64,000 nt of DNA from an uncultured Actinomycetota bacterium (GCA_963850215.1 CAWKKI010000006.1:5535-69534), one strand, 5' to 3'. Shown: positions 29,575 through 35,184, numbered from the stretch's first letter. The notes: generated from the letters alone by a model not told the origin. Program-made: numbers and translations.

Positions 29575-29657
29575 TCATGCTCGTTGCGGAGGCCCCCGGA
29601 GCCACGTCGATGTTCCAGGTCAGCGGGGGACCCAGTCTCCCGTTACGCTCGACTCCA

Positions 29658-30260
29658 ATGAGTGTTGACGCGGTGATCGAAACCCCTGAAGAGCGTGCAG
29701 CCCGCTTCGAGCGGGATGCGCTGCCCTTCCTCGACCAGCTCTACTCAGCGGCCCTGCGCATGACCCGCAATCCCGCTGACGCTGAGGACCTGGTCCAGGA
29801 GACCTTCGTGAAGGCGTTCGCCGCCTTCCACCAGTTCAGGACGGCACGAACCTCAAGGCGTGGCTGTACCGGATCCTGACCAACACCTTCATCAACACCT
29901 ACCGCAAGAAGCAGCGCGAGCCGCAGCTGTCGGCGGGCGAGGATGTCGAGGACTGGCAGCTCGCGCGTGCGGAAGTCGCACACATCGACGGGACTGCGCT
30001 CGGCTGAGGCCGAGGCGCTTGATCATCTGCCCGACTCCGACGTCAAAGAGGCGCTGCAGCAGATCCCTGAGGACTTCCGGATGGCTGTGTACCTGGCCGA
30101 CGTCGAGGGCTTCTCCTACAAGGAGATTGCCGACATCATGGGTACGCCAATCGGTACCGTGATGTCTCGACTGCACCGCGGTCGCCGTCAGTTGCGCGAA
30201 CTGCTTGAGGACTACGCGCGTGAGCGCGGCCTCGTACCGGCCGGCGAGGGTGAGAGATGA
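29658..30260 (+). CDS. sigR: ECF sigma factor SigR/SigH (two compensating frameshifts)
   Basis: [33 protein letters not shown]...[34 protein letters not shown]. Followed by a ZAS anti-sigma gene. Confidence 0.93.
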
Positions 30261-30543
30261 GTTGCGGTAAGCCGCACGCGACGGACTGCTCGGACGTGAT
30301 CGAGCGGGTCTACCTGTACCTCGACGGCGAGGCAGATGACTTTGATTGCTCGCGCATCCGCGAGCACCTCGATGAGTGCAGTCCTTGCCTTGCTCAGTAC
30401 GGGCTTGAGCAAGAGGTGAAGACACTCGTGCCCGCTCCTGCGGAAGCGACGATGTGCCTGAGGATCTACGTGTCCGAGTCATGGCTCGCTTGACCGAGGT
30501 GCGGGTCGAGATCACCCGGACGGAGTTCCGCGTCGAGGGCTGA
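30257..30543 (+). CDS. rsrA: Mycothiol-system zinc anti-sigma factor RsrA/RshA (frameshift near 30430)
   Basis: [11 protein letters not shown]...YLYLDGE...HLDECSPC (HxxxCxxC motif). Confidence 0.9.
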
Positions 30544-30733: not shown

Positions 30734-31390
30734 TCAGCCGGAGAGGCGGCGGTTCAGAGCGTCGAGCACCGATCGTGCGACCGCGTCAGCCTCGTCGCCG
30801 CGGACCAGTGCGCTGCCTGTGACCACCTGTTCGCCCAGCCGCGGCACCATCACGGACAGGATCGTGAGCGCGACTTCGCGCTGACCCAGGGCTACCACCG
30901 CTGCAGATTCCACCTCGGCGGTGGTGCCAAGAAGCTCGGCGACGGCCGTCAGAGTCGCCTGGGCTACCAATCGTGCCCGCTGGCTCGGTGCGCCGGGCCC
31001 GAGGACCTTGCCCTCGAAGACGCTGCCGCCGGCGGCAACGGTGACCGTCGCCTCGGACTCCTGGCCGCTGGTGCGCAACATGATGGATGCGATGGCGGGC
31101 CGAGGTGCAGCCTCGTCCTCGTCGTCATCTTCGTTGAGGATGACTTCAGGCACGTCTTCGTTGTCGAACTGCACGACGCTGACGATCCGGTGATCGATGT
31201 CGATGTCGAAGCGGGCCATCGCAAGCGACTGAACATCGCGAACGAGCTGCTTGGCAGGCTTGCCGGGTGAGGCCAGGACATGGATTTCGGTTGGCGTGCC
31301 ATCCGGTCCGGTAACGACGCTGGCCGCACGGATGCCCTGTACTTGGCGCAGCGCGTCCTCAAGTTCGGGAAGCAGGCGCAGGGTAGGCAT
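30734..31390 (-). CDS. Uncharacterised two-domain protein
   Basis: 218-aa ORF with protein-like composition: IHVLA..KQLVRDVQS..DIDHRIVSVVQ domain, acidic linker, alpha/beta C-terminal domain. Confidence 0.8.
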   Translation of the reverse strand: MPTLRLLPELEDALRQVQGIRAASVVTGPDGTPTEIHVLASPGKPAKQLVRDVQSLAMARFDIDIDHRIVSVVQFDNEDVPEVILNEDDDEDEAAPRPAIASIMLRTSGQESEATVTVAAGGSVFEGKVLGPGAPSQRARLVAQATLTAVAELLGTTAEVESAAVVALGQREVALTILSVMVPRLGEQVVTGSALVRGDEADAVARSVLDALNRRLSG

Positions 31391-31498
31391 CGAGGGGCTC
31401 CGCGTGTTCGTTGCTCGGTCGTGTCGTTGCTCGGGTGTGCCAGTGGTCGTGCCGTGGTCGTGCCTGTGACTTAGGCGCGCCCACTGCGCGCCTGCTGC

Positions 31499-31972
31499 CT
31501 AGTCTGGCCGAGGCAACTGGGTGAGACCGGCAACCAGGGTGCGGTGTCGCGCTGTTCTTGGCGCACTTTCAGGTGACCTTGGCGCCTCGGAGTCTTCGTC
31601 GGCATCACTCTCGGGTCCCGACCCGCTCGCCGAATGCAGGGTCAGATCGAGGACGTTGGACGTTCGCTGCGACTGCTCCCAGGCACGAGCGCTTGCGCTC
31701 ACGGACTCCTCGGCCTGCTCGGCGGCCTCGTCCAACGAGGCGATGGCCGCCGGAATCACCGTGCGAACGTGCTCGGTCACCGTGCGCAGGCTTTCGCGCT
31801 GCCACCAGCGCAGGAGCCGGGCGGTGGCGGCATCAATCCGGCCGGCAGCCTCAGCCGCCTCGAGTTCTGCGTCGAATCTGGCCGTGGCCGGGTCCGCCCG
31901 CGCGTCAAGCAGCCCTGCGACGAGGTCGGCAAGAGCCGCCTCGCGGGATGGACGTGAGGGAGACATCGTCAC
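31499..31972 (-). CDS. Hypothetical helical protein
   Basis: 157-aa ORF with an ARLLRWWQRES core and a low-complexity tail. Co-oriented with 30734..31390. Confidence 0.65.
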   Translation of the reverse strand: MTMSPSRPSREAALADLVAGLLDARADPATARFDAELEAAEAAGRIDAATARLLRWWQRESLRTVTEHVRTVIPAAIASLDEAAEQAEESVSASARAWEQSQRTSNVLDLTLHSASGSGPESDADEDSEAPRSPESAPRTARHRTLVAGLTQLPRPD

Positions 31973-32286
31973 TCAGGGTATGGGGTGGGTCTTCCCATCG
32001 AGGAAGACGTGGTCTGGTTACGCCGTTCGGGTCAAATGCCCATTTCGCCGCATGACCAGACCGGCCGGGCGCAATTCGCCGATTACAACGGGTAACTGAC
32101 CCGAAAGGGCTACCGTCAGAGGCCAAAGGGGTCGAATTCGGAGGTCTCCACCCACGTGGCGGTACTTGACGCCACCCTGTGTCCCATCCTTCACTTGCGT
32201 TCGGTGCCTGCCCTGCCGATGGGTACGAAACGGTCACTCATCGGATGGTCGCTGCTAACGCAGTGCGGACACCCTAAAACTGCACA

Positions 32287-32536
32287 GAGTGCGAGACGGG
32301 GATCGGCAGCCTTGGTTGGTTGTTGATCAGTTTCGGAGCGGACAACGGACGCCCCGAAGCACATGTAACTCCTTAGCGGAGCGGAATTACGCGCGGGTCT
32401 TAGCGGTACCCGTGACGTGAATCCACTGGAGTGATGTCCCAAATGAGCAAGCTCGTAAGCCTTGTCGAACGCGCTTTCACGGCCCCTGTTGGCATCTGGC
32501 GCTAGTGCCTAGGCTGCCGATCCCCGTCTCGCACTC
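32287..32536 (+). repeat. Perfect 26-bp inverted repeat enclosing 198 bp (candidate structured leader or ncRNA)
   Basis: GAGTGCGAGACGGGGATCGGCAGCCT (32287-32312) is the exact reverse complement of AGGCTGCCGATCCCCGTCTCGCACTC (32511-32536). Confidence 0.9.
32443..32505 (+). CDS. Unannotated 20-aa small ORF MSKLVSLVERAFTAPVGIWR
   Basis: ATG 32443 (alternative in-frame ATG 32434), GGAG at 32428-32431, TAG 32503-32505. Immediately upstream of the HD-GYP gene. Confidence 0.6.
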   Translation: MSKLVSLVERAFTAPVGIWR

Positions 32537-32557
32537 CTTGCCTTCCCCTGCAGGAGT

Positions 32558-33895
32558 GTGATGCGCGGCATGCCCTGGTCAGCGCGCGCGTATGTCACTG
32601 TGCTCGCGGTGATCGCGCTTGCGATCAACGCTGTCGCGGTCGGTCGTGTGCACCAGTGGTGGCCTGTTGCGGCTTTCGCTGTGCTTTACCTAGCGGCGCA
32701 CGTCATGCAGGTTTCGGCTGCGGGCCGAAGTGGCAGCAAGCTGTACCTCACTGTTAGCGAGCCTGTAGCGCTTGCCGCCTGCATCGCCCTTGGGCCCTGG
32801 GCGGCCGCGATCGTGGTGTCCATTTCGATCTTGGACTGGCATCCGGCGCCACTGAAGCGTCTGTTTAACGCGAGTCAGGCGGTGATTTTCACCGTGGCCG
32901 CCGGTGCCATGTACAACGCCCTTGGTGGGCCGCACGTGCTCACACCCAAGTCATTTCCGTCGGTGCTTCTGCCCACGCTCATCTCCGGTCTGACACTCGT
33001 CCTCGTCAATGCGATCCTCGTGGGCCTCGTGCTCGTTCTGGCGGAGGGGGCACGCCCGCTCGCGGTTATCCGTGACACGGTGTATCGACTTCCGGTTCCT
33101 GGCATCGCCTTCAGCCTGTTCGGCCTCCTCATCGCGGTCCTGTGGCAGGAGGTCGGTGTCGTCGCGCTGGCTCTGGTCCTGGTCCCGCTGCTCGCCGCGC
33201 GTTGGGCCATGGGTCAGTTCGCCGCGGAGCGCGACGCATACCAGTCAACGATTCGTTCGCTCGTGCAGGCGGTCGAGACCAAGGACGCCTACACGCGTGG
33301 TCACAGCGAACGAGTCGCCCGCGCGTCGGTGATGATCGCGCAAGTCATCGGGATGGATGACGACCGGACCAACGCAATCGAGTATGCGGGCACGCTGCAC
33401 GACGTCGGCAAGCTTGGGGTGCCAACGTCGGTCCTGCAGAAAACGGGCTCGCTCACAGACGAAGAATTCGCGGCGATCAAGTTGCACCCGGTTCGTGGAC
33501 ACGACATCGTGCGCGACATCCAGTTCCTCGATGAAGCACTCGAAGGCATCTACCACCACCACGAACGCATCGATGGCCGCGGCTATCCGATGGGCCTTAC
33601 CGGCGACCAGATCCCGGAGTTCGCCCGAGTGATCGCCGTCGCGGACGCCTTCGACTCCATGACCTCGACTCGTTCGTATCGCGGTGCGCGCACCATCGCG
33701 GACGCGATCGTTGAGCTTGATAGCTGCAAGGACACACAGTTCGATCCGGTGATGGTTGACGCGTTGGTGCTCGCGGTCGAGGCGACCGGATGGAACGCGG
33801 CTGTCGCCCCCACCGAGGCAGAGATTGCCGCTCAGAACGAACGATTCGCCGTCGACGACGACGACCCACTCCTCGATCTGAGGGCGGCGCAGTGA
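32558..33895 (+). CDS. Membrane-bound HD-GYP domain c-di-GMP phosphodiesterase
   Basis: Multi-TM N-terminus; KDAYTRGHSERV, LHDVGK, HPVRG, HHHERIDGRGYP and ADAFDSMTSTRSYR, all intact. Confidence 0.92.
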   Translation: MMRGMPWSARAYVTVLAVIALAINAVAVGRVHQWWPVAAFAVLYLAAHVMQVSAAGRSGSKLYLTVSEPVALAACIALGPWAAAIVVSISILDWHPAPLKRLFNASQAVIFTVAAGAMYNALGGPHVLTPKSFPSVLLPTLISGLTLVLVNAILVGLVLVLAEGARPLAVIRDTVYRLPVPGIAFSLFGLLIAVLWQEVGVVALALVLVPLLAARWAMGQFAAERDAYQSTIRSLVQAVETKDAYTRGHSERVARASVMIAQVIGMDDDRTNAIEYAGTLHDVGKLGVPTSVLQKTGSLTDEEFAAIKLHPVRGHDIVRDIQFLDEALEGIYHHHERIDGRGYPMGLTGDQIPEFARVIAVADAFDSMTSTRSYRGARTIADAIVELDSCKDTQFDPVMVDALVLAVEATGWNAAVAPTEAEIAAQNERFAVDDDDPLLDLRAAQ

Positions 33896-35184
33896 GCGCC
33901 ACGACCGCAGCGCCGAGGTTCGACGACCCAGGCTCGCGCGGCGTCTTCGTTGTCGGTGCCATTGCGGCGGTCCTGACCACCGCGTCGGTCGCCGCGATTG
34001 TGGTGCAGGGCTCACCCGACGTTGCTTGCGCTCTCGCGTTTTCCGCCTTCGTGGCCGTCGGCCAGTTCATGGCCTTGACCCTGCCGGGCGAGCGCGAAGT
34101 TGCTCCGGTCGCCATGGCCGCAGGTCTCGCCTTTGCGTTGGCTACCAACTTCGCTGGTCGACCACTTCACTACCAGGCCTATGAGGTCACGGCCTTTTTC
34201 GCGATCGCATCGTTGTTGGGCGTGCTTCCGCGGGTCTTCGTGGGCAGGACCCCTCGCATCGACGCGCTGTCCATCCGAGTCATCACGGTTGCCGTCACGG
34301 CATCGGCGTTTCGCGGCAGTCGAATCCATGCCGCCGTGGACCGGCTAAGTCCGACCGCTCTGGCCCTGTTCATGGTCTCGCTCGTGATCTGCGCGCTTCT
34401 CTTCGAAGCCGCGCTGTCGGCGGCGATTCGGGTCGGCTATACCCGCGCCCCCTATGTCCAGACCCTGAGTGACGGTTTGCGAGCCAGCTTTGGAATCGGA
34501 TCCGCGACCGGGTCCATCGCAGTGCTGATCGCCTTGTCGACCGGCGTGATGGGGTTCTGGTCGTTGCTCATCTTCTGTATTCCGCTGCTGCTTCTGCAGG
34601 TCTCGTTCAAGCGCTACGCATCGATTCGCGCGACCTACCGGCAGACGATCGGTGCTCTCGCCCGAGTAACCGAAGTCGGCGGCTACACCGAGAACGGCCA
34701 CTCGCGCCGGGTTTGCGACCTCTCGCTCACGGTGGGTCGCGAGCTGGGCATGTCCGAGGCGGACCTGCTCGATCTTGAGTACGCGGCGCTCATGCACGAC
34801 ATCGGGCAGATCTCGCTGAAGGAGCCGATCCCGGGTGGCGTTACCGTCACTGCGTCCTGGGAGGCGCAGCGCCGGATCGCCGAACTCGGTGCAACGGTCA
34901 TCAAGGAGACCGGCGTTCTCGATCGCGTTGCCGCGATCGTAGAGCGGCAGTCCGACCCCTACCGTCGACCGGGCCAGCAGGTCGATGAGACCCTTCCGCT
35001 GGCCGCGCGCATCATCAAGGTGGTCAATGCATTTGACGACCTCGTTGGCGGATCGGCCGACAGCGGACCACGCCTAGACGCGCTCGAACGACTTCGGATG
35101 GGCATGGCGTACGACTTCGACCCGCGGGTCGTCGAGGTATTGACCCGCGTGGTCGACCGCAACTTGCTGCTCAGCTCGGTCTGA
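33892..35184 (+). CDS. Membrane-bound degenerate HD-GYP-like protein
   Basis: Multi-TM N-terminus; GHSRRV and MHDIGQ are present, but HHE...GYP is replaced by ERQSDPY. GTG start overlaps the upstream TGA. Confidence 0.85.
   Translation: MSATTAAPRFDDPGSRGVFVVGAIAAVLTTASVAAIVVQGSPDVACALAFSAFVAVGQFMALTLPGEREVAPVAMAAGLAFALATNFAGRPLHYQAYEVTAFFAIASLLGVLPRVFVGRTPRIDALSIRVITVAVTASAFRGSRIHAAVDRLSPTALALFMVSLVICALLFEAALSAAIRVGYTRAPYVQTLSDGLRASFGIGSATGSIAVLIALSTGVMGFWSLLIFCIPLLLLQVSFKRYASIRATYRQTIGALARVTEVGGYTENGHSRRVCDLSLTVGRELGMSEADLLDLEYAALMHDIGQISLKEPIPGGVTVTASWEAQRRIAELGATVIKETGVLDRVAAIVERQSDPYRRPGQQVDETLPLAARIIKVVNAFDDLVGGSADSGPRLDALERLRMGMAYDFDPRVVEVLTRVVDRNLLLSSV

Follow-up and report, generated by a model that had tools for sequence, protein, structure and literature searches.

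Long-range stems recognized by RNase III, which in bacteria needs a duplex of about 20-22 bp, are known from the stalks of rRNA operons, the early mRNA sites of phage T7, and the pnp and rnc leaders. Messages that fold back on themselves are also found among the type I toxins (e.g. hok, aapA1, tisB and zorO), while control by leader peptides, or upstream ORFs (uORFs), is known from tnaC, ermCL, mgtL and trpL. Small membrane modulators include MgrB and SafA with their partner PhoQ, AcrZ with AcrB, and KdpF, and genes of c-di-GMP turnover are often preceded by c-di-GMP riboswitches, the GEMM-I and c-di-GMP-II classes being found before GGDEF, EAL and HD-GYP genes. HD-GYP proteins with a MASE9 domain are widespread. 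The Streptomyces venezuelae pair hdgA-hdgB is described as a gene for a 6TM-HD-GYP protein followed by one for a 6TM protein with a degenerate HD-GYP domain (PMC6205966). A second report states that the MASE9 domain was defined on such proteins, that it is thought to bind a ligand within the membrane, and that S. venezuelae HdgA is poorly expressed (bioRxiv 10.1101/2021.11.05.467447); this Streptomyces protein is the only studied case, and is reported to be without a phenotype.

Here we describe an element in the leader region of an hdgA-like gene, found in a stretch of 64,000 nucleotides from an uncultured Actinomycetota bacterium (GCA_963850215.1 CAWKKI010000006.1:5535-69534), the whole of which is referred to as the window. 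The gene pairing downstream of the element is the same as that given for S. venezuelae hdgA-hdgB (PMC6205966). Like the RNase III stems, the element has a duplex of 25-30 bp that joins sequences about 200 nt apart and encloses a functional unit at a cistron boundary, but what it encloses is a micropeptide mRNA, and its apical helix is conserved as sequence. With the hok, aapA1, tisB and zorO messages it shares a small ORF (hydrophobic in some lineages), pairing of the 5′ and 3′ ends, and a Shine-Dalgarno sequence (SD) in a hairpin; it differs from them in being single-copy, syntenic with hdgA and ancient, in that no antitoxin RNA was seen, and in that the peptide of the window is not hydrophobic. 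The very short conserved leader ORF, the Trp near its end and the structure beside its stop codon recall tnaC, ermCL, mgtL and trpL, whereas the element has no terminator or antiterminator, its ORF lies wholly inside the closing helix, and the gene downstream is that of a predicted c-di-GMP phosphodiesterase. A peptide of 20-35 residues with a basic N-terminus, a hydrophobic core and an interfacial Trp, encoded beside the gene of a polytopic sensor, resembles MgrB, SafA, AcrZ and KdpF, although several lineages of the element have amphipathic or very short peptides and the sensor is a putative partner. Finally, as a structured leader of a c-di-GMP turnover gene the element is comparable to GEMM-I and c-di-GMP-II riboswitches, but it has no Rfam match at E ≤1 beyond chance level, holds a coding ORF and is closed by a 29-bp helix.

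No description of a leader, uORF or structured RNA before actinobacterial HD-GYP genes was found in the full texts of the literature collection that was searched, and the control module does not seem to have been described. What appears to be novel is a structured leader in which a very long duplex encloses the whole of an upstream ORF and which is coupled to a putative c-di-GMP phosphodiesterase. It is a well-supported candidate for the small group of conserved bacterial RNAs that combine structure with coding. Its helices, invariant tracts and micropeptide are kept across classes, and expression of the phosphodiesterase would therefore be tightly controlled post-transcriptionally; the RNA domain and the peptide are two concrete handles for finding the signal.

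An inverted repeat in front of an hdgA-like gene

The element occupies the 3′ half of a 586-nt gap between a divergent ORF (31499-31972, - strand, 157 codons) and the hdgA-like gene (32561-33895, + strand), whose product carries MASE9 (2.7e-07) and HD_5 (5.1e-39) matches and a GYP motif at residue 341. The hdgB-like gene that follows (33790-35184, + strand; its true start is perhaps further downstream) encodes a membrane protein with a degenerate HD domain (HD_5 2.9e-12) and no GYP motif. From these domains, the pair is predicted to comprise a 6-TM MASE9 plus HD-GYP cyclic-di-GMP phosphodiesterase and a degenerate paralogue.

The arms of the inverted repeat (32282-32315 and 32508-32541, + strand) measure 34 nt, are 91% complementary and lie 192 nt apart; they contain a perfect core of 26 bp (32287-32312 and 32511-32536) with a spacing of 198 nt, exactly as a first-pass annotation of this sequence had described it. 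Among inverted repeats with arms at most 600 nt apart, this is the longest and best of the 64-kb window, in which five pairs of at least 18 nt were found, the remaining four having 19-25 nt at 81-85%. A second inverted repeat, imperfect (77% over 22 nt, with arms 42 nt apart), is located at 32023-32108, in the same intergenic region and 5′ of the element. The + strand folds with -132 kcal/mol, compared with -97.7 +/- 5.2 kcal/mol for 200 shuffles, none of which equalled it (z -6.55), and the - strand of the element gave z = -5.85. On the comparative evidence presented below, the inverted repeat forms P1, the helix that closes a structured + strand RNA of about 260 nt.

The first-pass annotation had placed three stems between the arms, and only the third is a conserved helix. 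The TTCGGAGCG/CGCCCCGAA stem (32332-32358), complementary at 8 of 9 positions, is part of the minimum free energy (MFE) fold of the window and lies in a region (32316-32374) that differs between loci and is variable in both length and sequence among relatives. The GTAACTCC/GGAATTAC stem (32365-32390; 7 of 8 complementary) is specific to the window, where it draws on an AAUUAC insertion, and shares positions with the invariant AGCGGAGCGG tract. The third stem, CGCGGGT/ACCCGTG (32392-32414), is real and conserved, and constitutes the hairpin P4. That no known RNA family could be recognized here agrees with a search of window positions 31000-34000 against Rfam 15, which at E ≤1 returned only V_AS7 (E 0.68, 33881-34000), outside the element. 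Seven related loci gave three chance-level matches (E 0.11-0.51), far below the gathering scores; one of the three, to IRES_Bip with 18 bits vs the 40 of its gathering score, overlaps the core of locus L124.

Occurrence in Actinomycetota

In its own genome (18 contigs, 76% complete) the 281-nt stretch occurs once, and beyond this only the arms match each other. Blastn searches of 401 genomes of the class yielded matches in 39 of them, among which are the own genome and the unpublished genome G261; at least two of the matches (L031 and L032) were due to chance and fell in a coding region. An exact pattern of the core recovered 56 stretches from 185,579 species genomes, nearly all of the carriers being MAGs assigned, by the titles of their records, to Actinomycetota, Frankiales, Frankiaceae, Sporichthyaceae, Acidothermaceae and Nanopelagicales. 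The pattern is also carried by one isolate genome (AP028633.1), and the carriers, most of them MAGs, come from lineages known almost only via metagenomes. Three of the 56 pattern matches (Caulobacter, Acidimicrobiales and Streptosporangiaceae) were rejected as false, having no covariance-model match, and two stretches at record ends were left out of the analysis.

When 151 genomes of the class were searched with R1, a covariance model of the 110-nt core, 55 were positive, among them the own genome and the unpublished genome G037; 54 of these 55 have a single copy, and G121 has two, on separate contigs. Beyond the blastn and R1 tallies, the conclusions draw on published genomes. Several families were fully positive (f1 5/5, f6 6/6, f9 3/3, f16 5/5, f19 5/5 and f30 5/5) and others fully negative (f3 0/6, f11 0/5 and f28 0/5). 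In a phylum-wide sample of 151 genomes, R1 matched seven; two of these, the own genome included, belong to the class, and the other five, from other classes, gave weaker matches (E 7.5e-7 to 7.5e-4). Four out-of-class loci were opened, and each has the core, the small ORF and an HD_5 gene of 430-470 residues in the same order; the long-range helix is clearly above shuffles in two of the four, and the ungapped P1 score is not above shuffles in the out-of-class loci L149 and L150.

In 85 of 89 loci, the element is immediately followed by an HdgA-like match in the same orientation, and the remaining four loci end less than about 330 nt past the element. The inferred hdgA start is found a median of 28 nt past P1. 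HD_5 was detected in 12 of the 14 downstream ORFs scanned; the two ORFs without it (L108, L112) are probably wrong picks, because an HdgA match was found downstream in both loci. Sixteen of 20 model-negative genomes have no hdgA orthologue, and the element thus goes with the gene. A strong hdgA match is present in the other four (G034, G009, G016, where it is cut at the contig start, and the unpublished G020), and the model-negative G021 has a weak HD-domain match only. Judged by this distribution, the element is old, present in several classes of Actinomycetota, and fixed in front of hdgA.

Compensatory changes and strand

Fifty-two non-redundant elements were aligned with MAFFT without structural information (alignment A2), and from this alignment RNAalifold predicts both P1 and the P4 hairpin (32391-32416, with pairs from G32393-U32413 to U32398-A32408). 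Pairs were counted in P1 (22 pairs), P3 (5), a possible hairpin of the core, and P4 (6). Overall, 94.8% of 1707 cells were paired, vs 36.6-42.3% when the partners were slid by 1-3 columns; 19 pairs had changes on both sides, vs 5-7 in the slid controls, and such double-sided changes were carried by 110 cells, vs 7-19. None of 500 shuffles reached any of the covariation measures. In P1, 15 of 22 pairs changed on both sides and 93.1% of cells were paired (e.g. columns 22/454, with GC in 20, UA in 16 and AU in 12 sequences), and in P4 the corresponding values were 4 of 6 and 99%. An unguided MI scan with APC of 76 sequences ranked the P1 and P4 pairs at the top and brought up no further convincing helix. 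No P3 pair was changed on both sides in the 52-element alignment, and both P3 and P5, a weak hairpin predicted further 3′, were rejected as conserved helices, there being no covariation for them in the pair counts or the MI scan. The first-pass annotation had proposed covariation across orthologous loci as a check, and for P1 and P4 it is strong.

Soil metagenome contigs of close relatives carry a compensatory change in P4 (32397 G>C together with 32409 C>G), as well as 32393 G>A, which turns a G-U pair of P4 into A-U, and 32530 C>T, which turns a G-C pair of P1 into G-U. P1 has a median length of 29 bp (11-53) in 78 unique elements, and one of its positions is mismatched in about half of the sequences (28 of 52 unpaired, columns 26/450). 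Its apical half, GGGAUCGGCAG/CUGCCGAUCCC, is conserved as sequence and not merely as pairing, and the apical CGGCAG/CUGCCG recurs even outside the class. In the structure-blind alignment, the P1 mismatches are strongly asymmetric, with 64 G-U vs 10 A-C, and therefore the + strand is the RNA, and no symmetry is maintained at the level of DNA.

This asymmetry bears directly on whether the repeat acts as DNA, i.e. as a MITE or an invertible promoter segment, both of which the first-pass annotation had offered as alternatives, or as two distant operator half-sites. A perfect 26-bp inverted repeat with a conserved apical arm sequence would suit such an element, but a DNA symmetry does not predict the excess of G-U over A-C. 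A MITE is ruled out because there is one copy in the own genome and in 54 of 55 positive genomes. An inverton is disfavoured because the inner part is inverted relative to hdgA in none of 89 loci, a test made on assembled contigs, which drop rare variants such as a minority orientation in one population, and because two metagenome contigs (X2 record 1 and X4 record 7) run through the element colinearly and without joints. The seven neighbouring ORFs include no recombinase (SRAP, sigma-70 region 4, zf-HC2, HD or no Pfam), and there is no target-site duplication, the conserved flanks ACAACUG (5′) and CUUCCCC (3′) being dissimilar. Readings at the DNA level are essentially excluded.

The conserved core

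Between the variable region and P4 lies the invariant tract AGCGGAGCGGA(A)U (32375-32387), seen in the alignments and the model matches, which may form P3, a 5-bp hairpin with a GCGGA loop that has no covariation support. The loop of P4 contains UAGCGG (32401-32406), and P4 is followed by the conserved linker GACGUGAAUCC, with its invariant GAC and the predicted weak P5, and by the SD of the small ORF, GGAG (32428-32431; linker and SD together 32414-32431). AGCGGAGCG is invariant in alignments A2 and A3 and in 38 of 38 model-found loci, and no variation occurs in AGCGGAGCGGAU or in the AGCGG of the P4 loop, an invariance that is partly due to ascertainment, as the pattern search and model R1 were used to collect the sequences. 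Together with the linker, the AGCGG tracts show the strongest conservation within the element, and they stay the same in loci whose P1 and peptide have diverged, including those of other classes. The base of P4 seems to be extended by 2-3 bp across a bulged A, the basal pair being U-A in 21 and C-G in 15 of 52 sequences; this extension and P3 are mutually exclusive and compete for the UCUCGC segment. The SD (GGAG or GGGG) is located 8-13 nt 5′ of the start codon in all 52 elements, and local folding pairs at least two of its four bases in 45 of 52 (MFE -6.4 vs -4.6 for shuffled sequences). A duplex between the invariant 13-nt tract and codons 3-7 of the small ORF (GAUC..CCGCU) was rejected as a general feature because the native sequences did not outperform synonymous recodings (mean -12.6 vs -11.9 kcal/mol; the 5% tail was reached in 4 of 74).

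Conservation of this kind would be accounted for if the RNA were a sensor, in which the AGCGGAGCGGAU tract, the AGCGG loop of P4 and the GAC-UGAAUCC linker bind a ligand or a protein and thereby gate the SD of the small ORF, and hence hdgA; such a domain would be riboswitch-like, perhaps for a nucleotide second messenger. The persistence of the tracts where the rest has diverged, the UCUCGC segment contested by P3 and a covarying P4 extension, and the weak hairpin that holds the SD all speak for a sensor. The weight of these points is lowered by the part of the invariance that comes from collecting sequences by pattern and model R1, and P3 and P5 do not covary, no Rfam family matches, and a closing helix of 29 bp is unlike the P1 stems of riboswitches. 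We consider a sensor RNA unlikely.

The enclosed reading frame

The small ORF (32443-32505, + strand, MSKLVSLVERAFTAPVGIWR) has an ATG start and 20 codons followed by TAG, and ends 5 nt 5′ of the perfect 3′ arm, as had been noted before, within the P1 helix closed by the 3′ strand at 32508-32541. Read from the aligned start column, it is intact in 50 of 52 elements, with 20-25 codons and a start of ATG (47) or TTG (5), and in the two that are not intact, both from MAG assemblies, a 1-nt indel causes read-through. In two MAG lineages (L011/L036 and L027/L041) a 1-nt indel before the Trp codon leads the frame into the P1 3′ strand, and may be either a sequencing error or a real variant. Other indels are in frame (12 nt and 3 nt), entropy is highest at the third codon position (0.88 vs 0.59 and 0.44), and metagenome contigs of near relatives differ from the window in this ORF by two synonymous changes plus V>I and R>K. 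Pooled pN/pS is 0.51, vs 1.26 and 1.19 in the other two frames, and indicates that the whole peptide is under purifying selection. By this coding signature, the small ORF is a protein-coding gene. Together with the covariation, the excess of G-U on the + strand and the synteny, the same signature supports the multi-branched leader RNA of about 250 nt with a peptide ORF that the first-pass annotation had put forward.

The peptide has no Pfam or NCBIfam family. Its common form is MKKIVSAVEQFLQSGANWKW, and family f19 and loci outside the class have hydrophobic-helix peptides such as MKKIAAVIGGLVALFVAGGAGAGWH and MKRVIAFLSGLAAAVLSAGAAAKW; in the family to which the window belongs, the peptide has shrunk to MFKMLLEPGVSWR (13 aa), and the peptides of the window and its nearest kin are not hydrophobic. 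Lengths span 13-35 residues with both termini kept, the N-terminal start is Lys-rich, and hydrophobic versions of 24-35 residues occur in several lineages. The model-negative genome G009 holds a 35-codon hydrophobic ORF, MFGK...PGISWT (L142 1326-1433), followed by a strong hairpin about 70 nt before its hdgA. Both ends of its peptide resemble the 13-residue peptide of the window's family, which suggests that this ORF is a diverged version of the leader module. A predicted complex of the same 35-residue peptide with a 32-sequence alignment of the HdgA N-terminus had a score of 0.01.

A small membrane peptide would open the way to a type I toxin-like arrangement, in which the mRNA would be kept inert by its 5′-3′ fold-back until processed, much as in hok and aapA1 mRNAs. 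The hydrophobic versions with a Lys-rich start, the long-range 5′-3′ helix and the SD in a hairpin would all be in keeping with such a message. Type I loci are patchy and multi-copy, in contrast to an element that is single-copy, strictly syntenic and vertically kept across classes, and with no antisense RNA in evidence and peptides of the window and its kin that are not membrane-like, we regard a toxin as very improbable.

Trp is the last or second-last residue in 50 of 50 intact ORFs, and about one third have W-x-W; in the larger set of 74 ORFs the Trp count is not independent, as the filter for that set required Trp. The stop codon lies a median of 13 nt before the P1 3′ strand (IQR 5-17), and no more than 17 nt before it in 56 of 74. 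Such an arrangement would be expected if the act of translation mattered, with a ribosome at Trp-(x)-stop altering P1, the access of Rho, or re-initiation at hdgA. The variation in length of the peptide between kept termini fits this, as does the C-rich composition of the P1 3′ strand and the following 25 nt (C 0.40, G 0.28). Blocking the P1 5′ strand lowered the predicted openness of the hdgA ribosome-binding site (RBS) from 0.42 to 0.37 (lower in 42 and higher in 14 of 74), which we take as a weak hint from modelling. On the other side, covering the ORF plus 10 nt changed the prediction for the hdgA site in 0 of 74 loci, and the idea that a ribosome on the small ORF opens this site was rejected. 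All three stop codons are used (29/23/22 in the 74 ORFs), 8 of 74 stops are more than 25 nt from P1, a scan found no terminator after the ORF, and purifying selection acts on the whole peptide rather than on its end alone. A leader peptide is thus a doubtful explanation, of low probability. An amino-acid attenuator of the trpL type was rejected on the grounds that no terminator follows the ORF and the downstream genes are not Trp genes.

Sequences on either side of the helix

The 5′ flank motif, ACAACUG in relatives and AAAACUG in the window (32276-32282, + strand), always lies 2-4 nt before P1 and is present in all rows of alignment A2 (A4, A6, A7 and T9 invariant) and in divergent loci; it often takes the form UUGACAACUG. 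On the 3′ side, CUUCCCC (32542-32548), a pyrimidine motif resembling an anti-SD, recurs in many loci between P1 and the SD of hdgA, which in the window is AGGAG (32552-32556; both within 32542-32556, + strand). The Streptomyces-sized G034 differs in having hdgA directly after an anti-sigma gene, with an anti-SD/SD pair and neither small ORF nor P1; at the place of CUUCCCC and the SD, its locus (L143) has CCCCUUCCC...GGGGAAGGGG before the hdgA start.

Further upstream, a CCTTCACT block is found 50-200 nt 5′ of the ACAACTG motif in most of the 52 loci, often with TTGACG 18 nt 5′ of the block. In the window, TTGACG-N18-TTCACT (32166-32195, + strand) lies about 80 nt 5′ of P1; it is a candidate promoter or operator block whose membership in the element is uncertain. 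From its sequence, a promoter is possible, although the second hexamer, TTCACT, lacks the usual A at position 2, and a sigma-70 promoter scan of the region, including this block, called nothing. In some clades the TTGACG-N18-TTCACT block lies inside a TGACG-N8-CGTCA palindrome. Three other candidates were discarded: a promoter of the SigH/SigR type (GGAAT-N18-GTA, 32383-32408), which is present in the window only and unconserved; the TTGACA within UUGACAACUG as a -35 box, with no -10-like sequence 16-18 nt further on; and a minus-strand GTG ORF at the CCTTCACT block, in which about 10 codons are alike (VKGVTKVRVK) before divergence and scattered stops set in.

A model for the leader

The reading that we favour, with about even confidence in it, is that the element is the leader of an hdgA-hdgB operon in which a micropeptide cistron is co-transcribed, P1 serves as a processing or insulating duplex, and the peptide acts at the membrane. 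The small ORF and hdgAB would be made as one transcript. P1 would not be a switching helix, as the duplex (median 29 bp) is too stable, and would therefore be a processing or insulating module specific for double strands, most likely an RNase III site; its 26 perfect bp in the window, like the median of 29 bp, exceed the length that the enzyme needs. Cleavage would set free a message for the micropeptide, its ends paired and protected, and would give hdgAB a new 5′ end that lies 20-30 nt 5′ of the start codon, next to the CUUCCCC anti-SD, so that peptide and enzyme could be expressed at different levels. Different levels would fit the poor expression reported for Streptomyces HdgA (bioRxiv 10.1101/2021.11.05.467447). 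The site of action of the micropeptide would be the membrane and its probable partner the MASE9 domain of HdgA, because the basic start, the hydrophobic or amphipathic body and the terminal Trp of the peptide fit such a role.

Several findings weigh against this favoured reading. Conservation of the apical P1 sequence is superfluous for a generic double-strand site, and the invariant AGCGG tracts are left unexplained; in addition, P1 is mismatched in 28 of 52 elements, the peptide of the window is not hydrophobic, and the promoter scan was empty. A two-layer module would combine elements of the readings above, with the AGCGG-repeat domain as a new sensor, riboswitch-like or protein-bound, that gates translation of a micropeptide, with this peptide serving the MASE9 domain of HdgA as a ligand or subunit within the membrane, and with processing of P1 uncoupling the two messages; we hold this to be rather improbable.

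Neighbouring genes

Beyond the 157-codon divergent ORF, as seen from the element, lies a second ORF on the same strand (30734-31390, - strand, 218 codons), and no Pfam or NCBIfam family was found for either. Both are syntenic with the element in the relatives L005 and L006, and the 157-codon ORF carries a conserved DPATARFDAELAAAE...RWWQRESLR stretch. In G034, where the anti-sigma gene preceding hdgA is rsrA-like, the leader contains, about 120 nt before hdgA, a hairpin together with a perfect CCCCUUCCC / GGGAAGGGG anti-SD/SD complement. A sigH/rshA-like pair is present at 29.6-30.5 kb of the window. Its sigH-like gene (29640-30262, + strand) is in three pieces, of which the N-terminal and region-4 parts are in frame with a stop between them and the middle part is in another reading frame, and it therefore has either two frameshifts or assembly indels in the MAG.
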